This document shows positions 2,765 through 21,484 of a stretch of DNA of 64,000 bases, piece after piece. Source of the DNA: a virus. The translations under genes and the position numbers were made by a program. Position 1 is the first letter of the stretch, and every line of letters starts with the position of its first letter. Location: IMG/VR virus record IMGVR_UViG_3300033143_002031, positions 120,745 to 184,744 of that record. One strand, 5' to 3'. The notes beneath the pieces are model-generated. The model saw nothing but the letters and a program-made list of their open reading frames with translations. It ran no database searches and was not told where the DNA came from.

Positions 2765-5110
2765 GTGGATGTGACAGTCACAGGGTGGGCGTGGTTGCCC
2801 AAGGCGGACCTGACGCCAGACCAGATCGTGAACATGGAGCGCATGCTCACGGTTCACCCGCAGAAGATCGGGGACTACCCGGGCGACGAGCCCCTGCCGA
2901 TCCACCTGTATGCGAACGAGAGTGACCGCTTCGGCGTCCCCCGCGAGTTCTTTTTCAGCAATCGGCGTGCGACTCACAACATCGACCTCCAGGTCACAGA
3001 AGGATCTAAGGACTGGTGGCCGGCGGAGTTTGTCGGCCTCCTTCGGACGGAGCAGAAGACCGCTCTGAACGAGGTGGTGGCGATGTTCCGGGCCGGGCGG
3101 ATGGGCGGGATCATCCAAGCCAAGCCGGGCTGGGGGAAGTGCCTGGGTATCGGAACTCCCGTGCTCATGTTCGATGGAGCGATAAAGCCTGTCGAGGACA
3201 TTCAAGATGGCGATCTTCTCATGGGGCCGGACAGCCGACCCCGCCGCGTTTTGTCTACGACACGCGGCACCGGACCGCTATACGAGATCGTTCCGTTGCG
3301 TGGAGAGTCCTGGGTGTGCAACGACGCTCACATCTTGACTCTGGTTCACTCCCTGACAGGAGAAGTACAGGATATTGAGGTGGGGGAGTACCTGAAGCTA
3401 TCGAAGACGGAGCGGCATTACCTCAAGCAGTTTGCTCCGGAGCAAGGGGTCGACTTTCTCTCAGCCGAGCCACTTCTGCTGGACCCGTACTTTTTGGGGG
3501 TGTGGTTCGGGGACGGTACGAAGGGTGCGGACGAGGGGGTCTTGAGGAAGGTAGCGGTCACTAAGCGGGACGAAGAGATCAAGAAGCTGTGCGAGGATGT
3601 GGCGTCGAGGTACGGTCTCCATGTCCGCGTGGAAACTTCTGGAGGTACGCGGTGCCCTACCTACCATCTCACAACTGGCAGGACGGGAGGAGGCCGGAAC
3701 GCGCTTCTCGATCTTTTGCGTCGTGTCGTGGGGGACGCATCTGAGGTCCCTCGTCAGTATCTCACCGCGTCCAGGTCGGATCGAAGGGCACTGCTCGCGG
3801 GTTTTTTGGACTCGGACGGCCACCTCAATAACGGTTATTTCGACATCGTGCAGAAGCGGCGCTCTTATGCGGAGGCCGTCATGTTCCTCGCCCGATCTCT
3901 TGGGTTTCGGGCGAGGGTGTCGGAGAAAATTGTACACGGGGAGGTCTACTGGCGCATGGGTCTGTCCGGCGATTTCTCTACACTTCCCCTGCGTGTGTCC
4001 CGAAAGAAGGCCCCTCCCCGGCGACAGAAAAAGGTGCCTACTCGGACAGGGTTCGATGTTCGTTTTGCGGGGACCGGGGCGTATGCGGGGTTTACGTTGG
4101 ACGGGGACGGGCGGTTCCTCCTCGGAGATTTCACCGTGACTCACAACACGGTCGTGGCGCTGGCTATCGCTGCCGAGCTAGGTGTGCCTACCCTCGTCGT
4201 AGTCCACAAGGAATTTCTGATGGACCAGTGGACGGAGCGGATCGAGAAGTTCCTTCCGGCGGCGAAGATAGGTCGCGTCCAGCAAGACACCTGCGACTTC
4301 CGGGGCAAGACTGTGGTCATGGGCATGGTTCACTCCCTTGGAGGAGAGCAGCCCTACCCTGAAGACCTGTGGGAGTGGCCGGGTTTGGTCATCGTGGACG
4401 AGGTGCACCGTATCGGAGCCCGCACGTGGGCTCCTGTTCCTCCGAGGTTCCAAGCCAAGTACCGCCTCGGATTCACGGCGACGCCCCGGCGCAAGGATGG
4501 CGCCGACGACGTGTTCTGGCAGCACATCGGTCCGATTATCTTCGCGGGGAAAGAGGAGCGATTGAAGCCCGTCGTCAAGCGAGTGTGGACCAAGTTCAAA
4601 CTCGTGAAGACGGACCGCTTCAATCCGAATCTGGCCCCGAAGGCGCTCATCACTCGGTTCCTGGTCAAGAGCCGCTACCGCAACGATCTGATCGCGGAGC
4701 AACTCGTCTCAGCCTTGGAGGCGGGGAGGAAGATCCTTGTGCTGAGTGAGCGCTTGCAGCACCTACAGGACATGGAGTCGCAGCTTCGGAATATGTGGCC
4801 AGCGGTGGCCGGAGACGTTTCGATCGGTCAGTACGTCGGAGGTCGAACCAAGGTCCAACTCGAACGGTCGGCGCAGGCTAAGGTCATCTTCGCCACGTCT
4901 CAGTACGCGGCCGAGGGTCTGGACATCCCGGCGCTGGACACGCTGTTCCTGACCACGCCAATGAGCGACGTGGAGCAGGCGGTGGGTCGTATTCAGAGGC
5001 CGCACCCGGACAAGAAAGATCCTATCGTGGTGGACTTCCGCGATGACTCGATTCCTATGTTCGAGGCGATGGGTAGGAAACGAGAGAAGTTCTACACGAG
5101 GATAGCTTGA
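2765..5110 (+). CDS. SF2 DNA helicase (UvsW/ResIII-like), intein-containing
   Basis: Walker A AKPGWGK|T split by the intein, IVDEVH, FTATP, helicase-C motifs (EGLDIPALD, QAVGRIQR); spliced length 445 aa. Confidence 0.92.
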   Translation: MDVTVTGWAWLPKADLTPDQIVNMERMLTVHPQKIGDYPGDEPLPIHLYANESDRFGVPREFFFSNRRATHNIDLQVTEGSKDWWPAEFVGLLRTEQKTALNEVVAMFRAGRMGGIIQAKPGWGKCLGIGTPVLMFDGAIKPVEDIQDGDLLMGPDSRPRRVLSTTRGTGPLYEIVPLRGESWVCNDAHILTLVHSLTGEVQDIEVGEYLKLSKTERHYLKQFAPEQGVDFLSAEPLLLDPYFLGVWFGDGTKGADEGVLRKVAVTKRDEEIKKLCEDVASRYGLHVRVETSGGTRCPTYHLTTGRTGGGRNALLDLLRRVVGDASEVPRQYLTASRSDRRALLAGFLDSDGHLNNGYFDIVQKRRSYAEAVMFLARSLGFRARVSEKIVHGEVYWRMGLSGDFSTLPLRVSRKKAPPRRQKKVPTRTGFDVRFAGTGAYAGFTLDGDGRFLLGDFTVTHNTVVALAIAAELGVPTLVVVHKEFLMDQWTERIEKFLPAAKIGRVQQDTCDFRGKTVVMGMVHSLGGEQPYPEDLWEWPGLVIVDEVHRIGARTWAPVPPRFQAKYRLGFTATPRRKDGADDVFWQHIGPIIFAGKEERLKPVVKRVWTKFKLVKTDRFNPNLAPKALITRFLVKSRYRNDLIAEQLVSALEAGRKILVLSERLQHLQDMESQLRNMWPAVAGDVSIGQYVGGRTKVQLERSAQAKVIFATSQYAAEGLDIPALDTLFLTTPMSDVEQAVGRIQRPHPDKKDPIVVDFRDDSIPMFEAMGRKREKFYTRIA
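3140..4147 (+). mobile_element. intein with in-frame LAGLIDADG homing endonuclease (336 aa)
   Basis: Starts CLGIGTPV right after Walker A GK, ends FTVTHN before Thr; LAGLIDADG-like blocks YFLGVWFGDG and LLAGFLDSDG. Confidence 0.93.
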
Positions 5111-10433: not shown

Positions 10434-11296
10434 GCAACGTGGCGGCGATTGCGGAACTTCCGGGATCGGAAGCGTGGGGCGCGAAGATACGAAAGCGAGC
10501 GCGAGCACTGGTCAAGACCATCGACCAGGGCTATATGGAGTTGGCGGAGATCCTCCATACTGTCTGGGCCACCCCGATCAACAACGAGTCCCACAATGCC
10601 TGCGTCACCGTGGCGTGGGGTTACGAGAGCTACGTCCAGTGGGGCGAGGAGGAGCTAGGTCTCCACAAGCGCAAGATCGAGCGCTTGAAGGCCATATGGC
10701 ACCACTTCCACATCACGCTGGGCGGAAAACTCGATCGCCCGACTCGGAAGAAGATCATCGCGCTCGGATGGACTAAGGTCCGAGAGTTGATCCGCGTCAT
10801 TGACGCGGATAACGCGGAGAAGTGGGTCGAAGTGGCAGAGCACCTGAACTACGACGAGTTGTGTGAGGCCATCCGTCGCGCGCTGGAAGCCCGAGAGAAG
10901 CACGACCAGGCGAGGGCGGTGGGCACCGCCGACGACGAGGACGACGACGAGTTCAAGGGGGCTCCCCCACCGGACGACGCGGACCGCTTCAAAAAGATGT
11001 GGTTCAACCTCACGCCCGAGCAGAAGGCCAACATCGAGATGGCCATCGGGCGCGCGAAGCAACTGGCAAACTCGGACAGGCCGGGGCACTGTCTGGACCT
11101 CATCTGTACCGACTTCCTGAGCACGAACGACTTCCGGAAGGCCGACGACCCCAACAGACACCTTATCTTCCTCGCCAAGTTCGAGCGACTGCTGGGCAAG
11201 AGACTCGTCGTGATCGACGCGGCGACGTGGGTGATCGAGTACGGCATGGATGCCCTGTCGAGGGCTGCCGAGGTCTTGGAGGCGAACGATGAGTGA
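10430..11296 (+). CDS. hypothetical protein, probably DNA-binding
   Basis: GTGA overlap and normal coding composition; YESYVQWGEEELGLHKRKIERL...LGWTKVREL resembles a common phage HTH-like domain. Confidence 0.65.
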   Translation: MSNVAAIAELPGSEAWGAKIRKRARALVKTIDQGYMELAEILHTVWATPINNESHNACVTVAWGYESYVQWGEEELGLHKRKIERLKAIWHHFHITLGGKLDRPTRKKIIALGWTKVRELIRVIDADNAEKWVEVAEHLNYDELCEAIRRALEAREKHDQARAVGTADDEDDDEFKGAPPPDDADRFKKMWFNLTPEQKANIEMAIGRAKQLANSDRPGHCLDLICTDFLSTNDFRKADDPNRHLIFLAKFERLLGKRLVVIDAATWVIEYGMDALSRAAEVLEANDE

Positions 11297-11528
11297 TCTG
11301 AATCTGGTGCTACCCATAACCCCAGACAACCTGCACACCGAGTTGGAGCACATCGAGGCGACCGTCAAGAAGTGGCGGGAGTACATTGGCCAGGGCATTG
11401 TCGGGATCGACAAGCCGGCTCCGGACTCTGACGAGAAGCTGGACGCCTTCCTCCGGCAGTTTACCGGCGAGATGTTCTTTGTCGCTGGCAAGTGCCAGAA
11501 CATGGCTGTCGTGCTGTCCGAGCGATGA
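11289..11528 (+). CDS. hypothetical protein
   Basis: Overlapping starts and stops on both sides. Confidence 0.55.
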   Translation: MSDLNLVLPITPDNLHTELEHIEATVKKWREYIGQGIVGIDKPAPDSDEKLDAFLRQFTGEMFFVAGKCQNMAVVLSER

Positions 11529-12346
11529 CCCATAAGAAGAAGCTAGAAGGCAGAACGATCTTTGAGATGCTGGACCCGACCCTTCTGGACAACAACCCTT
11601 GGAATCCGAACACGCTGGATCAGGACGACTTCAATCGGCTTGTGAGCGAGATCGAGGACGTAGGATTTATAGCTCCTGTGCAGGTCATCCCAGTCGATGG
11701 TGGGAGGTATCGGATCATCGGAGGAGAGCACCGCGTCGCGGCGGCTGTGGACCTACGTCTTCCTTCTATTCCGGCCATGGTGCTCGATGGACCACGCTGG
11801 AAGGATGAAGACCTCCAGAAGCTCGTCACGGTGCGCCTGAATGTCCTGAGAGGGAAGCTCAACCCGGACAAGATGGCGCTGCTCTATCACCAGATGGCGA
11901 AGAGGTACGGAGAGGACGCTCTCCAGAGCCTCTTCGCCTACACGGACACGCACGGCTGGGACAAGTTGGTCAGCGGGATCAAGCAGGGCCTCTCGAAGGC
12001 GGCGCTGCCGAAGGACAAGCAGAAGGAGTTTGCTGAGAAGGCGAAGGAAGCCAAGACCCTGAAAGACCTCGAACGCATCCTCAACGAACTGTGGTCGAGC
12101 TACGGGGACACGGTGCAGCTATCCTTCATGGTCTTCACCTACGGCAAGCGGGAGCACTTCTACATCGCCATGGATAAGAAGACCCGGGAGGCGGTCAGGC
12201 GCATCGGAGACCACTGCAAGGGCCACGCGAAAGACATCAACACCGTCCTCGGTCCGGCACTCCAAGCGCTCGCTGACGTCCTCGACAAGAGCGAGTCGAA
12301 GAAGACCTCCAAGGCGAAGCCCCAGCAAGATGACGTCGGCTTCTGA
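11525..12346 (+). CDS. ParB/Srx-like protein
   Basis: NPWNPN...LVSEIEDVGFIAPV...YRIIGGEHRVAAA. Confidence 0.85.
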   Translation: MTHKKKLEGRTIFEMLDPTLLDNNPWNPNTLDQDDFNRLVSEIEDVGFIAPVQVIPVDGGRYRIIGGEHRVAAAVDLRLPSIPAMVLDGPRWKDEDLQKLVTVRLNVLRGKLNPDKMALLYHQMAKRYGEDALQSLFAYTDTHGWDKLVSGIKQGLSKAALPKDKQKEFAEKAKEAKTLKDLERILNELWSSYGDTVQLSFMVFTYGKREHFYIAMDKKTREAVRRIGDHCKGHAKDINTVLGPALQALADVLDKSESKKTSKAKPQQDDVGF

Positions 12347-12359
12347 CCTGTGGTACTCC
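12345..12359 (+). promoter_or_regulatory. candidate phage late-promoter motif
   Basis: GACCTGTGGTACTCC; GACCGTGGTACTCC recurs at 45011-45024 upstream of the tail tube gene. Confidence 0.4.
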
Positions 12360-12395
12360 TAAACTCGGCCGAGAGATCGGTAGGGGTAGACGACC

Positions 12396-15300
12396 ATGGG
12401 CATGTTGAGCGAGGCCATTCCGCACACTTCAGGGCTCCTCGTAGAGGCCCCGAAGGCGCCGAACCCGGAGAAGTTCGTTCCGGTGTTCTCGTGGACCATG
12501 AAGCGTGTCTGGGTGTGGGTGAAGAAGGGCGGCAAGGTCTTTGGCCCCACAGAGATCCCTCACGGCCAGGTCAAGAAGTACAAGGGAAAGCTCGGGTGGC
12601 TCCCGACAAAGACTGAGTACGTAGCGCTCTTGGACCCGAGCGCCTACACCGGCCCAGACGACCTGTACCCCCCGGGCTGGAAGTACGGGGATTCACTGGA
12701 CACGTCCACGTTCGTGGGCAAGCCTGTGGACATTCCGATCCTGGCGAAATTTGAACCGCTGGTGAAGCCCAAGGCGAAGAAGAAGGCCCCGAAGCTACCA
12801 CCTGAGTTCACCCTCACGGGCAAAAAGGACCCCCATGGATTCCCCACGGTCGACGACGACACCTCCGGAGATGTGTTTTCGATCCTCCCTGACGGACGTG
12901 TCATGGAGTTCGACCCTGACGACGGGCTCTACTACGAGGTGAAGAAGGAGGGAGCCACCTGGTTCACTCAGGCCGCCCCCACCTACTCGCCCGCCGACCT
13001 GAAGCCGGGGCCAGCCATAAAGCCAAAGGCGAAGCCGCAGCCGATGGAGCCTCCGGAGGACTTCGAGCTACCTCCGAACTACACGATCAAGAAAGTCACG
13101 CCGTCGCATGTGGTCGCCATAACGCCGGACGGCACGGACGTGAAGTGGATCAAGGTCACGAACCATTGGGTCCACGCTGACGACCCCACAAAGGACCACG
13201 AGCCCCTTCAGTCCGCGACTCTCAAGACCAAGACCAAGACCAAGGCCAAGGCCAAATCCAAGGCCCAGTCAAAGAACCCGTTCAAGGTCACCACGAAGAA
13301 GAAGCCCGGGGCGCCGTCGAAGAAGTACAGCACCAAGAAGGGCAAGCCCTCCACGAAAGCTCCGGAGCAGGAGAAGGTCGTTGCGCCTCACGCCGAACTG
13401 GCGCCTCACCTCACCAAGTACACGGGTCAGGTCGATGTGAACGGCCTCCCGCTCGTGGACGAAGTGATGGAGGTGGCTTCCGACGATGAGCAGGTGGCGA
13501 AGGGCCTGACGCTCATGCCGGACGACCGTGTGGCCCGATGGCGCCCGGACAGTGGCGTCTACCTGCTCTACGACTACGATCCCTACTACGGGTTTATGTT
13601 CTCGAAGTCGGGGGAGACCGTCTCCCCGGACGAGGCCAAGAAACTCATGACGGTCTTGTCCCTGACGGTCAAGAACGGCCGCTATCACCAGTTCCAGAAC
13701 GTGGGGGCGGACAAGGCCCAGCCGTCCACCTACAGCGTGCCCTTGCCGAACGACTGCAAGTCGATCTCGCAGAAGGACACGAACGGCCTTCCCATGGTGG
13801 AGTCGATCCCAACCGACGATATGGACGACAACCACAAGTTGACGCTCCTCCCCGACAGCCGCCTGGCCAGGTGGGACCCGCTGTCGATTCAGTACCTCGT
13901 GTGGGAATGGAGGGACATCCTCGGGGACTACAACTACTACCCGACCCACCCGACCGTGTACGTCACCTTGAAGGAGGTCAAGAAACTCCAGGCTCAGGTG
14001 CCCTCTGTGCCCGTCAGCACCCCCGTGGAGCCTCCGGAGTGGAAGCCCAAGGCGAAGCCCAAGGCGAAGCCCAAGGCGAAGCCTACGGGCGCCCTGGAGC
14101 CCGCAAACGCCAAGGACCCCAGGGGCTACCCTGTCGGGCTGTACAAGGGCAGCACGTATGCCATTCTGCCGGACGGCAAGGTCGGCGTCTGGTCCAAAGC
14201 GAACGGCGCCTACGTGCTCCACCAGTATGACGCGCTCGGGGACAGCTACTACAACTCGGGCTACATGTGGACTCCCCCGGGGATGCACCAAGCCCTGGCC
14301 CCGGACCACGGTACTTTCAGTGCTACCTTGGCCCATGTCGTGGACCACGACGGGAAGTCGGTCCTGGTGCTCCCGAACGGGAAGTTTGCCGAGCACAAGT
14401 ACATCGACGGCAAGTCCAAGATCGTCATCTACAAGGCCGACCCGGCGCAGGGGAAGAAGTTCGTTCCGACCGGAGAGATACTCGACCCATCGGACCTGAA
14501 GGACGTGATAGGGGAGCCTGACTACAAGACCCTGAAGCCCACGGGTGAGGTGGATGACAACGGCCTCCCAACCTACAAGGTTGTGCAGGGAGACTCCAAG
14601 CACCTGAAGCCCTTGGCGATGCTCCCGAACGGCTCCATGGCGGCGTGGAACCCCAAGGCGAAGACATACCGCCTGATGGAGTTTGACCCGCAGTTCGCGG
14701 TGTGGGAATTGTCCTTCCCGAAGGAGACATTCGATCTCAGCGACATCGACGCGATGTATCTGAAGTCCGGGGTCACCCCGATATCTGAGCCGCCGGCCCC
14801 CGCGAAGGCGATGACCCCTCTGGTGCCGGCGAAGGCAGTGAAGTCGGACGAGCCCGAGGCACCAAAGAAGCCCCCGAAGATGCCGGCAGCGGCGGCGTTC
14901 GTCACTCCGCAGGCCGACCTCCCCGACCCCGACACGCTGGAGGACATCGGGTCGGCCGGGATGAAGGGTGCCGGAGCCAAGACGCGACTCAAGGACCCGG
15001 ACACAGGCAAGCTCTATCTGTTCAAGCCGTCGATACCGAAGAGCGGCCCGAAGAAGACGCAGGCGTTCCGCGCCAAGTCGCAGGAGGGTTTCGCCGCCGT
15101 GGCGGCCGTAGCTCGCCCGGATGCCTATGTCCCTGTCGAGACGGTGAAGTACAAGGGGCAACTCGGGACGCTCCAACCGATGTTGGACCTGGACCCGAAT
15201 CAGGAAGACCTCGCGGGCGTGGCGCCCGAGGAGTTGACGGAGCAGCAGAAGCAGGACGTCGCCGAAGAGCACCTGCTCGATTGGCTCATGTCCCAGCACG

Positions 15301-17459
15301 ATTCCTTCGCCGCAAACTTCGTCATCACGAAGGAGGGCCGCGTCGTCGGGATCGACAAGGAACAGGGCTGGAAGTACGTCGGTCACAAGTCCCACCCCGA
15401 CGAGTTGAGTACGGAGTACCGACCCAACAGCGACCTCTACGGCGAGCAGGAGCCCTACTACAACAAGTTCTGGCGGGCGTTCGGCGGCGGCACGATGGAC
15501 TTCGATCCGAAGTCCATGAACAGCGCCCTCAAAAAGCTGGAACAGATGCCCGTCGAGACCTTGACCAAGGCCCTGGAGGGGTACGCGGCCACGAACAAAA
15601 AGATGCTCGGAGCGGACAAGGAATACGAGCGCTACGCTTTCGTGAAGAAGATGGTCTCTCGCCGGGCGACGCTGCGTCGGGACTTCGAGGAGTTCATCAC
15701 GGAGAAGTACGTGAAGCGCGAGGGCGAGACCGGGAAGTTTACGTTCGCGGCGGGGTGGGTGAGCGACGCCTCGGAGGCGGCCGGGCCGCAGTCCACATTC
15801 CAGGAGGTCTCGGACACCCTCCGAGGGCTCATCCTGAAGCATCTCGGCTCGAACGCCCTGAAGCCGCACAAGTCGGACCCGGACCTCACGGTCGTGCGTG
15901 TCCAGAATATGGAGCCGATCACAAAGGTCACGGAGTACCTCCAAGAACTAGGTGTCGAGGTGGTGGGAGAGCCGAAGATGGGCTCGAACTACAACATGGT
16001 GTTCGTGAAGAGCGGTGACCTCGACAAGACGATCACCAAGACGATCGAGATCAAGTCCGAACCAGGGCAGAAGTACCAGGACTTCAAGGGCTCCCCGACG
16101 TACCAGTCTGAGGCGTTCGCGCCCCAAGAGGCTCCTGCCAACATCGACGAGATCATCACGGTCGAGCAGGACCACCTGGGCCACGTCGGGAAGCAGTTCA
16201 CCCTGGACGGCAAGGCTGTGGAAGGGCAGTCAGCTAGCATTCAGAGGGTCATCCTCACGAACGGGAAGAAGGCCCACGTCGTCCACTTCAAACTCCGGAA
16301 GCCCTACTGGAAGGACATCACCGGGGGCGAGCCTGGCGAGTACAAGTGGCACCTCGGCGCCTACGACGAGGGCGAGGACGCGGTGCGTTACTCGTCGAGC
16401 GGGGGGCACTCTGAGAAGGCGCTCGTCTTCAAGGGGCCGAAAGGTTCGGAGATGTTCGTGCTCGGGCCGAAGGTGGACCACTCACACTACGGCAACAAAG
16501 CCAGTTACTCCTTCCAGGGGTCGGTGTACGCGATCATCCCTGAAGGGGCTGGGAAGGTGAAGACGGTTCTGAAGAAGCTGCTCGATGAGATCGGACTCGC
16601 GAAGGAGGTTCTGAAGAAGCCGAGCAAGTCGGACGTCGAACTGTTCCATCTATCGCAGGCGCTCTGGTCGGTCTCCCCGAAGGTCCACGACAAACTCATC
16701 GAGGATGACGTTGAGTTGACGATCCCCCTTCTGAAGAAGAAGCTGAAGGGCAAGTTGAAGAAGGACGAGATCGAGGCCATTCGCACAGTCCAAGGCCCAC
16801 TCGGAAGGGCGTCGGCGATCATCCCAGGTCGGTGGAAGACGCTCGGAGGCGGGACCGAGGACGACCCGGTGGTCCGGTTCCCGTTCTGGCAGGTGGACAA
16901 CCCTAGCAAGGTGGCCAACATACTCAAGACCGGAGGCGTAGGCGCTCACGAGCGGATGCGGATGGGGCTTGGTACTGGGGGCTCGTCGGTCCACTCCGAC
17001 ATGGAGACCGGCGGCTCGGACAACGTGACCACGCGGATCGCGATGAAGGACCACTACGGCTCGATGGACCAGGGAAATGTCCAGGGCGCTATCAAACTCG
17101 TCATCGCACCGGAACTCCTGGACCGGCTTGACGTTCACCTTGCGCGGGGGGACTCCTACGGGGCCACCAAGCCTGGGCATTCGTCGTTCTACGACAACCG
17201 GAAGGGGCTGAGCAGCGCGGTCAAGGCGGAGAACGCAAGCAAGCACTCGAACACGGAACTGGTCTTGCGGCGTGGGTTCCCGGCCTCCATGATCAAGCGC
17301 ATTGCGACGGGGGGCGAGAGCACGCGGAAGAAGGTTCTGGCAGCCCTGGATAACGCCGGCATCACCGAGCACAATGGGGTGCCCATCGAGGATTTCGTGG
17401 TCGTTGAAACGGATCAGAAGGCTATGTACACCAAGTACCTGAAGCCGCTGGGGTACTGA
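12396..17459 (+). CDS. 1687-aa multidomain protein: N-terminal repeats, HipA/PI3K-like kinase domain, C-terminal ADP-ribosyltransferase-like domain
   Basis: 5-6 repeats D-x-x-G-x-P...LP[DN]G-x-x-x-x-W; kinase motifs GSAGMKGAG, LYLFKP, DWLMSQHDSFAANF, GIDKEQ; C-terminal NILKTGG...GGSDNVTTR...NTELVLR (ART call weaker). Confidence 0.7.
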   Translation: MGMLSEAIPHTSGLLVEAPKAPNPEKFVPVFSWTMKRVWVWVKKGGKVFGPTEIPHGQVKKYKGKLGWLPTKTEYVALLDPSAYTGPDDLYPPGWKYGDSLDTSTFVGKPVDIPILAKFEPLVKPKAKKKAPKLPPEFTLTGKKDPHGFPTVDDDTSGDVFSILPDGRVMEFDPDDGLYYEVKKEGATWFTQAAPTYSPADLKPGPAIKPKAKPQPMEPPEDFELPPNYTIKKVTPSHVVAITPDGTDVKWIKVTNHWVHADDPTKDHEPLQSATLKTKTKTKAKAKSKAQSKNPFKVTTKKKPGAPSKKYSTKKGKPSTKAPEQEKVVAPHAELAPHLTKYTGQVDVNGLPLVDEVMEVASDDEQVAKGLTLMPDDRVARWRPDSGVYLLYDYDPYYGFMFSKSGETVSPDEAKKLMTVLSLTVKNGRYHQFQNVGADKAQPSTYSVPLPNDCKSISQKDTNGLPMVESIPTDDMDDNHKLTLLPDSRLARWDPLSIQYLVWEWRDILGDYNYYPTHPTVYVTLKEVKKLQAQVPSVPVSTPVEPPEWKPKAKPKAKPKAKPTGALEPANAKDPRGYPVGLYKGSTYAILPDGKVGVWSKANGAYVLHQYDALGDSYYNSGYMWTPPGMHQALAPDHGTFSATLAHVVDHDGKSVLVLPNGKFAEHKYIDGKSKIVIYKADPAQGKKFVPTGEILDPSDLKDVIGEPDYKTLKPTGEVDDNGLPTYKVVQGDSKHLKPLAMLPNGSMAAWNPKAKTYRLMEFDPQFAVWELSFPKETFDLSDIDAMYLKSGVTPISEPPAPAKAMTPLVPAKAVKSDEPEAPKKPPKMPAAAAFVTPQADLPDPDTLEDIGSAGMKGAGAKTRLKDPDTGKLYLFKPSIPKSGPKKTQAFRAKSQEGFAAVAAVARPDAYVPVETVKYKGQLGTLQPMLDLDPNQEDLAGVAPEELTEQQKQDVAEEHLLDWLMSQHDSFAANFVITKEGRVVGIDKEQGWKYVGHKSHPDELSTEYRPNSDLYGEQEPYYNKFWRAFGGGTMDFDPKSMNSALKKLEQMPVETLTKALEGYAATNKKMLGADKEYERYAFVKKMVSRRATLRRDFEEFITEKYVKREGETGKFTFAAGWVSDASEAAGPQSTFQEVSDTLRGLILKHLGSNALKPHKSDPDLTVVRVQNMEPITKVTEYLQELGVEVVGEPKMGSNYNMVFVKSGDLDKTITKTIEIKSEPGQKYQDFKGSPTYQSEAFAPQEAPANIDEIITVEQDHLGHVGKQFTLDGKAVEGQSASIQRVILTNGKKAHVVHFKLRKPYWKDITGGEPGEYKWHLGAYDEGEDAVRYSSSGGHSEKALVFKGPKGSEMFVLGPKVDHSHYGNKASYSFQGSVYAIIPEGAGKVKTVLKKLLDEIGLAKEVLKKPSKSDVELFHLSQALWSVSPKVHDKLIEDDVELTIPLLKKKLKGKLKKDEIEAIRTVQGPLGRASAIIPGRWKTLGGGTEDDPVVRFPFWQVDNPSKVANILKTGGVGAHERMRMGLGTGGSSVHSDMETGGSDNVTTRIAMKDHYGSMDQGNVQGAIKLVIAPELLDRLDVHLARGDSYGATKPGHSSFYDNRKGLSSAVKAENASKHSNTELVLRRGFPASMIKRIATGGESTRKKVLAALDNAGITEHNGVPIEDFVVVETDQKAMYTKYLKPLGY
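14043..14083 (+). repeat. coding 12-bp tandem repeat (AAGCCCAAGGCG x3, KPKA linker)
   Basis: Three exact copies plus a partial fourth. Confidence 0.9.
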
Positions 17460-17460
17460 C

Positions 17461-18654
17461 ATGTCACTGGACTTCAACACCGTCTACAAACTCAGGCTCG
17501 GGAGCGACCCGGCTCACCCCGAGATCGTCATGGCTCCTGTGCCGCTCCCTGCGGGGAAGGGGTGGTGGGTCCGTCGCACCTCTCCAGACCATCCGGAACG
17601 CATCCTCCGAGGCGACACGTTCGAGGGGGAGGGTGGGAAGGTCGTCGTGGTGACTAAGGACGGCCCAGCCACCTTCGAGCCTCTGACGCTGGACCTGTGG
17701 AAGGGGATGAACCCTTCCGATTCCTCCCACCTGCCGTTCGACTCGGATGGCGATTTGCAGGAGTTTTACTGGCACGATTGGATGACGGCCTCGGAGGAGA
17801 CCGGGGTGGGGGACATCGACTCGATCTCCAAGGCCCTCGCCATTCAGTACGGGGCTGAGATACAGGAGGGCCGTAAAGCCAAGCCTGGCGAGGTCCACCA
17901 GTGGAGCGACGGCTCCTACCTGAAGCTGCGCGATGGCACCTGGCAGAAGATACCCGGCACGGAGCCCGCCGCCGAGGGCGCGGAGATAATGGCCGAGACG
18001 ATCACGCGACTGAATGGGATGGTCGGAAGCGGCGAGTTGGCTCCCGGGATGGACATTCAGGACCACATCGACCAGGCCCGTGGCGTCGTGGACGCGCATA
18101 GGAAGGGTGTGGTCGCGTTCGGCGCGAAGCTGGAGGAGATGGCCGGGGGTGGCGCGAATGTCCAGGGCCGGGTGAAAACTCTCGGCTCGGTCCTCGGGAA
18201 GATCGCTACCAAGCCGCACTGGTTCAAAAAGGCGGATGACGTGCAGGACGGCACAGGCTACCGGATCATCCACGACAGCCTAGACGACGTGACGCGCTCC
18301 GTCGGGAAGATCAAGAAACAGTTCAAGGTGAAGGCGGAGCGGGACTACATCTCGAACCCGCAGGGCAGCTACCGATCGCACCACCTGATCGTGGAGGACG
18401 AAGACGGCCTGGAGAAAGAGATCCAGGTCCGGACGCGCCGGCAGCACGAGATGGCGGAGTGGTCGCACGACGTGTTCAAGCCACGGACGTCAGAGCAGAA
18501 GAAGAAGGTCGACGCCAACCGCAAAGAGATCGAGAAGACCCAGGCGAAGATTGCCGAGTGGGCATACGAGAAAGACAAGGGCAAGGACCCCGGCCCCCAG
18601 CCGGAGTGCCCCGAGCAGGTGTCCAACGCAGTCGGGTGCCGATCACTAGGGTGA
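17461..18654 (+). CDS. RelA/SpoT-family small alarmone synthetase with N-terminal extension
   Basis: All synthetase motifs present: GRVKTLGSVLGK, DGTGYRII, DYISNPQGSYRSHH, EIQVRT, QHEMAEWSH; no hydrolase domain. Confidence 0.9.
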   Translation: MSLDFNTVYKLRLGSDPAHPEIVMAPVPLPAGKGWWVRRTSPDHPERILRGDTFEGEGGKVVVVTKDGPATFEPLTLDLWKGMNPSDSSHLPFDSDGDLQEFYWHDWMTASEETGVGDIDSISKALAIQYGAEIQEGRKAKPGEVHQWSDGSYLKLRDGTWQKIPGTEPAAEGAEIMAETITRLNGMVGSGELAPGMDIQDHIDQARGVVDAHRKGVVAFGAKLEEMAGGGANVQGRVKTLGSVLGKIATKPHWFKKADDVQDGTGYRIIHDSLDDVTRSVGKIKKQFKVKAERDYISNPQGSYRSHHLIVEDEDGLEKEIQVRTRRQHEMAEWSHDVFKPRTSEQKKKVDANRKEIEKTQAKIAEWAYEKDKGKDPGPQPECPEQVSNAVGCRSLG

Positions 18655-18659
18655 GGACG

Positions 18660-18884
18660 ATGGCGAAGAAGACAGACATGGAGAAGCGGCTCGAAGCGAA
18701 GGCGAAGATGATCCCGAAGGAGGGGTTCAACCTCGTCGGGTTCGACGACTTCGAGGAGCCTGGAGATGAGCTACACCTGGCGGCGCGATTCGACACGCAC
18801 GAAGAGGCCGACGCCGCCATGAAGAAGCGGATGAAAGACGACCCGAGCCAGCGCTTCTTCATCTACGGCCCCGACGACCACTAG
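18660..18884 (+). CDS. small hypothetical protein (candidate antitoxin/regulator of the synthetase)
   Basis: SD GAGGA, ATG 5 nt after the synthetase stop; 74 aa. Function inferred from position only. Confidence 0.65.
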   Translation: MAKKTDMEKRLEAKAKMIPKEGFNLVGFDDFEEPGDELHLAARFDTHEEADAAMKKRMKDDPSQRFFIYGPDDH

Positions 18885-19130
18885 CCATGCCTGGCACGTC
18901 CGTGTTGGCTGCGATCGTCCCTCCTCGCGTGTGGCTGCGACGGAGTTTGTGACCGCCCTCACCGACAACGGTATCGAGGCTCGCGTCGTCGGGCTGTGGG
19001 CTGCCAAAGTGATGACTCCGCTGGGGCGTGAGAGCAGGGTTGCGGGTGCGCTCGTAGCTGCTATTCTGTCGGTCGATCTGAGGCGTACTCGCGCGCACGC
19101 GAAACTGCTCGGGGTGCGCCTGCTAGCCCT

Positions 19131-19203
19131 TGAAATAAACGGATGCCCTTCAAGAGCAAACGTGGTATAGTCCCAACTATGGATGTTGGGAGCGATCACT
19201 CCC
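19131..19203 (+). promoter_or_regulatory. extended -10 promoter flanked by inverted repeats
   Basis: TGGTATAGT 19163-19171; TCCCAAC/GTTGGGA 19171-19191; TTGAA/TTCAA 19131-19153. Confidence 0.5.
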
Positions 19204-19223
19204 AAGGATAAGGAGATCGGACG

Positions 19224-19685
19224 ATGGCTGATTCAAAAGTCGCAGGTGTCGCCGCAGCCGTGAAGAAGGCCAAGGGGAAGCCAGTGAAGAAGCGCGGCGA
19301 GGCAAAGGCGAAGCCCCACAAGGTGACCAAGCCGAGGAAGAAGAAGGCCGCCGCGAAGAAGGCGCCCCCGAAGAAGACTGCTGAGAAGAAGACCCCGACG
19401 AGCGGTCAGAGCGCTCCGTCCATAGAGCTTTCCACGGACGGTCTCAACACGAAGGAGGACAAGGTCTTCGCCGCGCTCAACGGCCCCGGTTCGGGCGTGC
19501 GGACGATCCTGACCATCGCGGAACTGTCGGAGACGTGCTTCAAGTCGCGCGGGAGGCGGCAGGCCAACTCGTGGACCCGGAACTCGCTTCGGCGCCTCGT
19601 GCAGGCCGGGCTCGTGGAGAAGGTCGCACGTGGCAAGTACCGCGTGTCGGAAGCCGGCCGTAAGAAGCTGGCCCGCGCCGCGTAG
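19224..19685 (+). CDS. Lys/Ala-rich (histone H1-like) N-terminus plus winged-helix DNA-binding protein
   Basis: KKAKGKPVKK...KKAAAKKAPPKK then LNTKEDKVFAAL...NSLRRLVQAGLVEKVARGKYRVSEAG; SD AAGGAG. Confidence 0.75.
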   Translation: MADSKVAGVAAAVKKAKGKPVKKRGEAKAKPHKVTKPRKKKAAAKKAPPKKTAEKKTPTSGQSAPSIELSTDGLNTKEDKVFAALNGPGSGVRTILTIAELSETCFKSRGRRQANSWTRNSLRRLVQAGLVEKVARGKYRVSEAGRKKLARAA

Positions 19686-19687
19686 TC

Positions 19688-21484
19688 GTGCTGGACTACG
19701 ACTTCATCACGCGAGCGGACGACCTGAACCGCGTCGCGCAGGACGTCCTACAGGCCGACGTCCTCGGCCTTGATATCGAGACCACCTCCCTAGACCCTCG
19801 CTACGGAGACATCCGTCTGGTCCAGTTGGTCGTGCCCGGGGTGGAGAACGACGGGCGCGGTCGCATCTACGTCATCGACCTCTTTCAGACCAAGACTCTC
19901 GGCCCTGTGCTCGAAGCCATGCGGGAGACCTCCGCAATCTTCGTGATCCACAACGCCAAGTTCGAGCAGAAGTGGATGTGGTGGAAGTTCCGCCTTCGCA
20001 TCTGGCCGGTGTTCTGCACGTTCCGGTCGAGCGCGATCACGTACAACGGGAAGAAGGGGCTCAGGCACAACCTTGACTCCGTGATCATCCGCGAGTTGGA
20101 CGAGCACCCGGTGAACGTCGGGCAAGGGAAGTCGAACTGGTCCGGGACGCTCAACCAACAGCAGAAGGACTACGCAGCCGAGGATGTTTTGCGTTTGCTC
20201 CCCCTTCGGGTGGCTCTGAAGAAGAAGCTGACGGAGTACGGGCTGCTCACCACCGCGCTTGTGGAGTTTGGCGTGGTGTTCGCGGAGTGCCGGACCGAGT
20301 TGAATGGCTTCGCCCTCGATGAGGAGAAGTGGACCACCCTCGCGAAAGCCAACGCGGCAGCGCGATTCAAGTCCCGCGAGGAGCTACTCTACGAGCTACC
20401 GCACCCGAAGGACCAGATGGCGCTGCCGGGGATGAGCGGGCAGTGGAACGTGGACTCGCCGCAGCAGATGCTCGCTTCCCTGAAACGGCTCGGCCTGAAG
20501 ATCGAGAACACGCCGGAGATCGTCCTCGCGCAGCACGCGGGTAAGTATCCCCTCGTGAAGAAGGTGCTCGACTACCGCCACATCGCACAGCGCGTCAAGA
20601 CGTTCGGAATGACCTTCTTGCGCCATCTAGACGAGGACTCCCGTGTCCACACGGAGTACTTCGGGCTGCTCATTACGGGCCGCTACAGCGCGAACAAGAG
20701 CATGCACCAGATCCCACGGGCGCTGGAGTTCCGGGACTGCTTCGAGGCGCCAGAGGGGCGTAGGCTCACGGGAGCGGACTACTCAGGGATCGAGATGCGC
20801 CTGTGTGCTGAAATCTCCGGGGACCCAGCGCTGACGCAGGTGTTCATCAACGGGGAGGACGCGCACAGGGCGACAGCGGCAGTCATCATGGACATGGACC
20901 CCGACAAGGTGTCCAAGGCCCAGCGGCAGAACGCGAAGCCAGTGAACTTCGGGTTCATCTACGGAATGATGCCAGACAAGTTGGTCCTCTACGCCATGTC
21001 GAACTACGGTGTGGCGTTGACGCCCTACCAGGCGAAGACCTACCGCAAGCGTTACTTCGAGCGCTACGCAGGGGTCGAGCAGTGGCACCGACGAGTGCTA
21101 CGAGACGGGCAGCGCAACGGCTTCTCTCGGACGCTCTGTGGGCGCATCCGCTACCTGGACCCGCATGAGGCGTTCAATGAGTTCTACAACACCCCGGTGC
21201 AGGGCTCCGGAGCAGACGCCCTGAAGACCTCGCTGGCGATCGTGCAGGACGCCATCGACAAGCGCTTTGGGGTCACCTCACCGGAAACTCCTGATGGTCC
21301 CGTGAAGATCGTCCACCACGTCCACGATGAGATCATCCTGGAAACGGACGACACCCATGAGATGGTCGCGGAGGCCGAGAGCCTGCTCAGTGAGGGCATG
21401 GTCGAGGGCATGGAGAAGTTCGTTCACCACGTGCCTGTGGTCGTAGACGCCTCCAACGGAAAGTCATGGGCAGACATTCACTGA
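19688..21484 (+). CDS. polA: family A DNA polymerase with 3'-5' exonuclease, no 5'-3' exonuclease
   Basis: LDIETT, HNAKFE, YAAEDV; motif A ADYSGIEMR, motif B RQNAKPVNFGFIYG, motif C VHDEI. Confidence 0.95.
   Translation: MLDYDFITRADDLNRVAQDVLQADVLGLDIETTSLDPRYGDIRLVQLVVPGVENDGRGRIYVIDLFQTKTLGPVLEAMRETSAIFVIHNAKFEQKWMWWKFRLRIWPVFCTFRSSAITYNGKKGLRHNLDSVIIRELDEHPVNVGQGKSNWSGTLNQQQKDYAAEDVLRLLPLRVALKKKLTEYGLLTTALVEFGVVFAECRTELNGFALDEEKWTTLAKANAAARFKSREELLYELPHPKDQMALPGMSGQWNVDSPQQMLASLKRLGLKIENTPEIVLAQHAGKYPLVKKVLDYRHIAQRVKTFGMTFLRHLDEDSRVHTEYFGLLITGRYSANKSMHQIPRALEFRDCFEAPEGRRLTGADYSGIEMRLCAEISGDPALTQVFINGEDAHRATAAVIMDMDPDKVSKAQRQNAKPVNFGFIYGMMPDKLVLYAMSNYGVALTPYQAKTYRKRYFERYAGVEQWHRRVLRDGQRNGFSRTLCGRIRYLDPHEAFNEFYNTPVQGSGADALKTSLAIVQDAIDKRFGVTSPETPDGPVKIVHHVHDEIILETDDTHEMVAEAESLLSEGMVEGMEKFVHHVPVVVDASNGKSWADIH

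Follow-up and report, generated by a model that had tools for sequence, protein, structure and literature searches.

A RelA/SpoT-family small alarmone synthetase and a predicted small inhibitor encoded side by side in a T4-like phage

The window analysed here, 64,000 nucleotides (nt) corresponding to bases 120745-184744 of a 184.7-kb virus record of IMG/VR (IMGVR_UViG_3300033143_002031), carries two tightly adjoining genes, one for a RelA/SpoT homologue (RSH) of 397 amino acids (aa), here called P0001, and one for a 74-aa protein, P0002, that is predicted to block it. Judged by its domain, motifs and fold, P0001 is a hydrolase-less and catalytically intact small alarmone synthetase (SAS) of the RelA/SpoT family, with an activity that is predicted. 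The locus, from an uncultured phage, is of a known type of phage cargo, a toxin with its antidote; its version pairs the stand-alone form of a clade of phage synthetases with an undescribed family of small putative inhibitors. The explanation that we favour, at about even chances, is that P0001 is a (p)ppGpp maker from a phage-restricted effector clade, which would act on the newly infected host and would be held by P0002, with its N-terminal domain possibly removed at head maturation. The directly established parts of this explanation are the domain, the intact motifs, the fold, the fusion architectures of the clade and the synteny of the pair.

17461-18654, plus strand: synthetase gene (P0001), ATG start, 397 aa; hydrolase-less RelA/SpoT-family small alarmone synthetase by domain and fold (Pfam PF04607, 67.7 bits; fold Z 15.6 to RelP)
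18660-18884, plus strand: adjoining partner gene (P0002), 74 aa, acidic; new family, predicted to occlude the synthetase active site

The synthetase

The Pfam domain RelA_SpoT (PF04607) covers residues 236-337 of P0001 (nt 18166-18471) with a score well above the cut-off of 27 bits (E 1.4e-18), which bears out an earlier reading of the same DNA (the original prediction) that had placed a complete RelA/SpoT core at about 18150-18480; NCBIfam gives partial RelA/SpoT/RelQ matches only. Neither a hydrolase (HD) domain nor, by Pfam, a MuF domain was found in the protein, and PF13328 (HD_4) was not found across the whole 184.7-kb record. Together with the T4-like gene set of the window, this agrees with the earlier description of a hydrolase-less SAS in a lytic-type phage.

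The protein can be divided into four parts, as follows, with P0004, the product of a gene on a 201.6-kb contig and 59% identical to P0001, as its nearest point of comparison.

17461-17868, plus strand: residues 1-136, the N-domain, acidic (isoelectric point about 4.6), ending in I134-Q-E136 and common only to P0001 and P0004
17869-18150, plus strand: residues 137-230, a beta-hairpin module (PGEVHQW..GSYLKLRDGTW) and the two long helices that open the synthetase fold; conserved among the nearest homologues
18151-18480, plus strand: residues 231-340, the catalytic core, delimited by the Pfam envelope, by alignments to Rel/RelQ chains and by invariant columns
18481-18651, plus strand: residues 341-397, clade-specific C-terminal helices and a tail of the form G..P.P.CP..V...GC, modelled with a pLDDT (predicted local distance difference test) of 84-95

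In alignments to solved Rel, RelA and RelQ chains all of the ATP-, Mg- and acceptor-binding residues of the solved RSH enzymes are kept in P0001. They comprise the ATP-site residues R237, K239, K247 and K251, the Mg ligands D263 and E320, and further core residues G266/R268, the G-loop P300..Y304, S306/H308 and Q322/R324/T325. The catalytic residues also show little or no variation in two further sets, of 59 and 75 members, of the clade, which was defined by a HMMER scan of 1.84 billion representatives as the 215 clusters matching through the C-terminal tail at E<=1e-30; pattern counts out of 150 refer here and below to the best 150 of these 215 representatives. The core carries a net charge of about +3, while P0001 as a whole is acidic.

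Outside the core, the anatomy was read from an alignment of 15 proteins obtained in a word-indexed search, in which the relatives all align with P0001 from about residue 137 onward. The original prediction had described some 230 aa of unrelated sequence ahead of the core, including a KPGEVHQW module that it singled out. For residues 1-136, which are lineage-specific, the description holds; residues of about 137-230, however, are conserved in the clade, and the helices at 174-228 belong to the synthetase fold itself, since the structural alignments to RelP, RelQ and CapRel cover them. This leaves 136 residues and a module of some 30 residues as the part outside that fold. The module is present but not peculiar to this phage, as KPGEVHQW...GTWQK is conserved in the closest homologues, with W161 in 14 of the 15 rows. 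Conserved columns of the C-terminal part are K340, P341, G374, P381 and P384, and the tail pattern P.CP...GC occurs in 71/150 representatives.

The AlphaFold (AF2) model of P0001 is confident (pLDDT 84-98) from about residue 180 to the end and poor before that point; it contains strands at 145-164 and helices at 174-190 and 199-228. Residues of about 195-376 align structurally to RelP and RelQ, and residues 177-397 to CapRel. The N-domain is beta-rich in the model, at low confidence. It has no paralogue in the genome, its sole homologue among 166 fetched proteins and the ORFs (open reading frames) of the loci is in P0004, and an Atlas structure search with it gave only matches to unnamed proteins at a TM score of about 0.5. 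A 128-aa ORF in the same position in the related loci L002/L003 was considered as a homologue of the N-domain and rejected (BLASTP E 11, hhalign probability 0.4%, shuffle z 0.9-2.0).

Type of enzyme and probable product

Ranked by a profile search of the PDB, the nearest solved proteins are RelP (6.6e-20) and RelQ (about 1e-18), followed by long Rel/RelA enzymes (1e-14 to 1e-10); the toxic small alarmone synthetases (toxSAS) lie much further off, with CapRel at 8.7e-7 and FaRel2 at 1.5e-3, and Tas1 gave no match at E<=1. Fold comparison gives the same order at the top, with Z 15.6 for RelP (root-mean-square deviation 2.5, 168 residues aligned) and 15.0 for RelQ, and places Tas1 lowest among the RSH folds (Z 11.4); a Foldseek search with the synthetase model reached E 3e-8. 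P0001 shares with RelP and RelQ the same ATP, Mg and G-loop residues, including Pro300, four residues ahead of Tyr304; RelP, too, has a proline in its G-loop, which rigidifies the loop and leaves that enzyme constantly active (PMC5794853). It differs from both in an identity of only 22-26%, in its extra N-terminal parts (residues 1-136 and the beta-module), in the clade-specific, Cys-containing C-terminal tail, and in having a dedicated predicted inhibitor and a phage context.

The motifs point in the same direction. According to Paulet et al. (PMC12226406), the Apk2 domains that make (p)ppApp carry RYT, GxN and YH in motifs syn2-4, whereas guanosine-type RSH enzymes carry AVR-like, SxH and IR sequences. 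In P0001 these motifs read G-Y-R, S-H-H (an SxH) and V-R, and are thus of the guanosine/RSH type and not those of the Apk2 set; across the clade, Y.S.H is found in 129/150 and E.Q.RT in 134/150 representatives. On profile ranking, fold scores, syn motifs and G-loop proline, we lean to a (p)ppGpp-type product as the most likely one, the motifs and fold being closest to RelP/RelQ and not to Tas1/Apk2. The original prediction had named a remodelled stringent response or a halt of translation as possible outcomes; between these, motifs and fold tilt to an enzyme of (p)ppGpp type.

Three points weigh against this assignment and limit how far the lean can go. The syn motifs are weak predictors of substrate, because motif swaps failed to turn Apk2 into a ppGpp maker (PMC12226406). 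CapRel, a tRNA pyrophosphokinase, has a fold score nearly equal to those of RelP and RelQ (Z 14.4, 201 residues aligned). And RelP and RelQ are non-toxic in E. coli (PMC7229694), so that the need for a plug of its own could be the sign of a more damaging enzyme.

These points are the substance of the best-surviving alternative, which keeps the enzyme-inhibitor pair and changes its product, either to pyrophosphorylated tRNA 3'-CCA ends, with a stop of translation as for CapRel, FaRel2 and PhRel2, or to (p)ppApp with a drain on ATP, as for Tas1, Apk2 and FaRel. Its case is that the structural match to CapRel runs on through the C-terminal extension (residues 177-397), that tight protein inhibitors are typical of the toxic toxSAS or Apk types rather than of RelP/RelQ, and that the characterised RSH toxins linked to phage heads (Apk2) yield (p)ppApp. 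Set against it are the profile search, which puts RelP/RelQ at least 13 orders of magnitude above CapRel and FaRel2 weaker still, the syn2-4 motifs of RSH and not Apk2 type, and the want of any sequence match to Tas1 together with its lowest Z. Nor does the weakly charged core of an acidic protein give any sign of a tRNA-binding surface, and an Aph1/SAH-type (small alarmone hydrolase) (p)ppApp/(p)ppGpp hydrolase was not found in the genome. We consider a product of either of these kinds unlikely.

The small partner

P0002 belongs to no Pfam, PHROG, NCBIfam or PADLOC family, and on sequence grounds it is a new protein family. Its ORF begins 5 nt past the stop codon of P0001, in keeping with the spacing originally predicted, and a GAGGA-like Shine-Dalgarno sequence overlaps that stop. 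A word-indexed search gave only three close homologues. When IMG/VR loci were retrieved with the synthetase (tblastn and hidden Markov model searches), a P0002 homologue was found directly after the synthetase in 9 of 10; when IMG/VR was searched with the P0002 alignment alone, 13 loci were returned, nine of them on new contigs, and a clade synthetase is adjacent in every one (13/13). The synteny rests on 19 IMG/VR contigs and the present one, and the two genes mostly overlap or are parted by gaps of a few nucleotides. In one 171-kb phage (L005:5785-7607, the same as L023) two clade synthetases of 319 and 291 aa stand in tandem and are followed by a 202-aa ORF and then by the P0002-like gene.

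The family alignment shows invariant P19, D29, P34, L38 and A50 and near-invariant G22, V26 and E32. P0002 is modelled with a pLDDT of 90.6 as a helix-strand-strand-helix-strand protein, a fold for which Foldseek found nothing at E<=0.001 (best E 0.62) and a wide VIA search reached a Z of 4.6 at best. A likeness to known antitoxins is not claimed, the scores with the C-terminal part of CapRel (Z 3.9) and with ATfaRel2 (Z 3.3) being within noise.

Complex prediction with residues 140-397 of the synthetase and P0002 gave a score of 0.89, against 0.00 for the best of three controls. The mark used for this score was reached by 58/80 solved complexes and 2/110 mismatched pairs, a calibration that is rough only, as our own alignments were used. 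At least 88% of the contacts agree between runs, and the partner has a pLDDT of at least 90. The predicted interface takes in synthetase residues 235-240, 246-247, 250-251, 263, 266, 268, 304, 320, 322 and 332-358, the first helix of the C-terminal extension among them, and E31 of P0002, in the conserved DDFEEPG loop, contacts residues 266/320/322. An interface laid over the ATP, Mg and acceptor residues suggests active-site occlusion, which is the established mode of Tis1/IapK (PMC10083569, PMC12226406). The score could reflect the predictor's memory of solved complexes of RSH enzymes with inhibitors, though P0002 resembles none of these detectably.

Strict synteny and a predicted complex that covers the active site make P0002 credible as the restraining partner, an immunity- or antitoxin-like protein that would plug the synthetase. 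The original prediction had offered either this 74-aa protein or the N-domain as the restraint; for the latter no evidence was found.

Certain loci fit such a role less well. The MuF-HAD-synthetase protein of L011 has no detectable partner. On a 54-kb contig (L007:5710-6845, the same as L013) the P0002-like gene and the synthetase gene run towards each other on opposite strands, with a 4-nt overlap at the synthetase 3' end, and this is the sole locus where the pair cannot be co-transcribed. Four loci (L006, L020, L019 and L017) have the P0002-like domain at the start of a longer protein (694, 458, 267 and 144 aa, respectively), and fusion to longer proteins, one of them PI3/4-kinase-like, is unusual for an immunity protein.

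Such fusions, among them the one in L006 that brings in a PI3/PI4-kinase domain, speak for a reading of P0002 as an adaptor, chaperone or activating subunit instead of an inhibitor, one that might, for example, tether the synthetase to the capsid or to further effectors, and structure searches without a clear match to solved chains, RSH antitoxins and immunity proteins included, leave room for that idea. It is hard to reconcile with an interface that is predicted to cover the residues binding ATP, Mg and acceptor and that would preclude catalysis, with the placing of invariant D29, P34 and L38 and near-invariant E32 in the very loop and strand that make the predicted contacts, or with the Tis1/IapK precedent of active-site occlusion; we regard it as very unlikely.

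The clade and its fusion architectures

The clade to which P0001 belongs is a group of phage and metagenome effectors in which the synthetase often forms the C-terminal end of a larger protein, of portal, MuF, InPase, Zeta-kinase or ParB polyvalent type, a point missed by the original prediction. Most of its members are short (89/150 of at most 340 aa), while 31/150 exceed 480 aa and have the synthetase at the C-terminus. Among 59 long members Pfam identified Phage_portal_3 in nine, InPase in four, a Zeta-toxin-type kinase in three, Phage_Mu_F in two, and LPD1 and ddrB-ParB in one each; Pfam scans of the long members and of the IMG/VR loci added HAD phosphatase and dual-specificity phosphatase as further fusion partners. 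Fused members on IMG/VR also include L006, L004, L011 and L017, whereas P0001 itself is unfused to any such domain. In a tree of 159 clade domains the portal fusions fall at no fewer than five separate places among stand-alone proteins. P0001 and P0004 form a pair with an SH-aLRT (Shimodaira-Hasegawa-like approximate likelihood ratio test) value of 100, and the pair groups less firmly (88) with stand-alone proteins 281-313 aa long.

Several of the fused loci deserve description. On a 108-kb contig a clade synthetase is fused to the C-terminus of a Phage_portal_3 portal protein of 988 aa (L006:3679-6645), and two genes past it (L006:7232-9316) lies the 694-aa protein with a P0002-like domain first and a PI3/PI4-kinase-like domain last. 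A polyvalent protein of 1654 aa (L017:27-4991) joins ddrB-ParB, a Zeta-type kinase and the clade synthetase, and is followed by the 144-aa protein with a P0002-like domain (L017:5001-5435). Fusion of a polyvalent-type InPase (PF18823) to the clade synthetase recurs (L004:22-1749, P0077, P0088 and P0089), sometimes with MuF or a Zeta-type kinase in addition, and L011 combines MuF, an HAD phosphatase and the synthetase. The pairing of phosphohydrolase and synthetase may be a functional unit.

As to distribution, one pattern scan of the genomes of 185,579 species found no cellular or prophage copy, which speaks weakly for absence of the clade from cellular genomes. GenBank phages hold distant relatives only, the best match to an annotated phage protein being to Nitrososphaera provirus Pro-Nvie1 at 29% identity.

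RelA/SpoT domains are known from phage polyvalent proteins and MuF fusions, for which Iyer et al. 2017 (PMC5512222) propose packaging and injection; Jamet et al. proposed likewise for MuF toxins (PMC5576092). The polyvalent RelA/SpoT proteins of Iyer et al. have the companion domains that occur in our clade (InPase, ddrB-ParB, LPD1, MuF, portal) and the same proposed role, an alarmone-like shut-down at invasion. They differ in that the parts are separate genes in the present phage (ParB-like protein, giant protein, synthetase, partner), and the sections of that paper that were consulted are silent on the small partner family and on any fusion of portal and RelA/SpoT. The order of these four genes in the window is matched by that of the domains in the 1654-aa polyvalent protein of L017 and the partner gene after it.

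Comparison with toxin-immunity and toxin-antitoxin systems

The Apk2-IapK(Tis1-like)-Aph1 MuF modules of Bacteroides caccae, S. pneumoniae and M. haemolytica prophages (PMC10083569, PMC12226406) are like the present clade and its partners in having an RSH synthetase linked to a head protein and then a small active-site blocker, blocking being predicted in our case. The proposed logic is also the same, with the toxin loaded in the head and the immunity protein protecting the producing cell, and the present clade, too, has members fused to MuF and portal proteins. The differences are that P0001 stands alone in a T4-like, lytic-type phage, has syn motifs of RSH/guanosine type and gives no sequence match to Tas1; that P0002, at 74 aa, is without a clear match to solved structures; and that no Aph1/SAH hydrolase was found in the present genome, Aph1 being variable even in Apk2 loci.

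The toxSAS toxin-antitoxin (TA) systems (CapRel, PhRel including Phrann gp29/gp30, PhRel2 and FaRel2; PMC7229694) likewise join a hydrolase-less SAS to a tightly linked small partner, a neutraliser there and a predicted one here, some are phage-borne, and the CapRel fold score is high. They differ from the present pair in that the profile of P0001 is far closer to RelP/RelQ, that the P0002 family is unrelated by sequence to the toxSAS partners, and that the present clade comes from viral and metagenomic contigs and occurs joined to virion proteins, with the scan of cellular genomes mentioned above giving no copy.

One could nevertheless see in P0001 and P0002 a classical type II toxSAS TA pair serving superinfection exclusion, abortive infection or cassette addiction, rather than a delivered or early takeover effector. 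The tight bicistronic layout, the small acidic partner, the position of the gene outside the head-gene block and the precedent of mycobacteriophage Phrann gp29/gp30 (PMC7229694) are all in accord with it. It fits poorly with a T4-like phage in which no lysogeny genes were seen among the genes annotated, with the one pattern scan of 185,579 species that found no cellular or prophage copy, and with a tblastn search of 50,697 phage records that gave no Mycobacterium or Bacillus phage toxSAS match at E<=1. Fusions to portal, MuF and polyvalent-protein domains recur in the clade, so that a phage-delivered effector with an immunity protein, in the manner of Apk2/IapK, fits better than a TA system of the chromosomal style. 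We therefore think a toxSAS TA pair highly improbable here.

Packaging and processing

In T4, the internal proteins and Alt are made with a short leader that targets them to the capsid and that gp21, the prohead protease, cuts off at (L/I)xE. Of the 15 closest homologues of P0001, 13 share a [LIM]xE tripeptide at one alignment position, 23-25 residues ahead of W161, and L012, L015 and L021 have it too; several of the stand-alone homologues carry it only 9-16 residues in from the N-terminus. The portal and polyvalent fusions lack the stretch or cannot be aligned over it. In P0001 the motif is I134-Q-E136/G137 (the slash marks the candidate cut), exactly where the unique N-domain gives way to conserved sequence. 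Peptidase_S77, the T4-type prohead protease, is present in this phage and in four of the five large (129-198 kb) relatives that have the stand-alone pair, L005 being the one without a match. The likeness to T4 internal proteins and Alt is accordingly in the short leader ending in (L/I)xE of the nearest stand-alone homologues, in IQE136/G of P0001 and in the prohead protease gene; the difference is that the 'leader' of P0001 would be a folded-looking domain of 136 aa, with cleavage and packaging as proposed steps. By this analogy it is plausible that P0001 is packaged into the capsid and processed by the prohead protease at IQE136/G, and possible that residues 1-136 are a capsid-targeting or pro-domain.

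There is evidence on the other side as well. The (L/I)xE could be conserved for structural reasons, and P0001 contains five such tripeptides. The cassette sits among replication genes (ParB, PolA, ThyX) and outside the head module; the T4 late-promoter motif TATAAATA was not found in the window, and a sigma-70-like site was not found in 11000-19800. The general proposition, that T4-like lytic phages of about 185-200 kb package a RelP/RelQ-like (p)ppGpp synthetase that is matured by the prohead protease and released with the DNA, P0002 plugging it during production, is one that we advance tentatively and consider rather doubtful as a whole.

Locus and phage context

The window has a G+C content of about 62%, and every large ORF lies on the plus strand. 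Its T4-like gene set consists of a T4 gp20-type portal, the Peptidase_S77 prohead protease, RecA/UvsX, a family-A DNA polymerase and ThyX, together with helicase and terminase-like genes carrying inteins. Lysogeny genes were not seen among the genes annotated, and no tRNA genes were found. No near-identical DNA was found among GenBank phages. PADLOC gave a single match, to the generic RelA/SpoT-containing candidate model PDC-S33, which is uninformative. Upstream of the synthetase gene lie:

11492-12346, plus strand: gene for a protein with a ParB N-domain, upstream of the giant gene
12396-17459, plus strand: gene for a giant protein of 1687 aa, ending in TGA at 17457-17459, directly upstream of P0001

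A single base (17460) separates the stop of the giant gene from the P0001 start, so the original prediction was right on this junction too. The giant protein has no Pfam match; its C-terminal half is kept upstream of the synthetase in the relatives L002/L003, where a family-A polymerase also follows. Its N-terminus (window 12396-12460), MGMLSE/A...LLVE/A, has two (L/I)xE sites in the first 17 residues and resembles T4 capsid-targeting leaders. A relationship of the giant protein to the PI3/4-kinase protein of L006 was rejected, there being no similarity by BLASTP.

The next gene after P0002, beyond a 339-nt gap, encodes a basic winged-helix protein (19224-19685) of 153 aa, lysine-rich and with a C-terminal match of the AbiEi_4/Mrr_N-like kind, directly upstream of the family-A DNA polymerase. 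The gap folds no better than shuffled sequences (z -0.30), Rfam has no match in 11000-20000, and the sole plus-strand terminator-like hairpin found is weak (19038-19059). Elsewhere in the window, at 2765-5110, a ResIII-type helicase ORF of 781 aa is split by an intein, in which a Hint domain and a LAGLIDADG homing-endonuclease domain are recognised.

A possible course of action, and its meaning for phages

If the explanation favoured at the outset is correct, P0001 would transfer pyrophosphate, from the beta-gamma position of ATP, to the 3'-OH of GDP or GTP, giving (p)ppGpp, and would bring about a stringent-like shut-down of the newly infected cell, either as it arrives with the DNA or at a very early stage of infection. 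During synthesis of further copies in the infected cell, co-translated P0002 would bind and block the enzyme, its acidic loop D29-x-x-E32-x-P34, conserved through the family, being placed by the predicted geometry over the cleft for ATP, Mg and acceptor. The N-domain, ending in IQE136/G, may serve as a capsid-targeting or pro-domain and be cut off when the head matures.

Among phage-borne RSH enzymes, those described so far are toxSAS systems of prophages and (p)ppApp toxins fused to MuF (PMC7229694, PMC10083569, PMC12226406), while phage alarmone hydrolases and the T7 portal protein suppress alarmone signalling (PMC13483052). The present locus offers a compact case of such an enzyme in a T4-like phage of lytic type. 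If the proposed role is true, P0002 would add a new scaffold and family to the protein inhibitors of RelA/SpoT (RSH) enzymes, and phages would impose alarmone signalling on their hosts, with the stringent response turned on rather than off.

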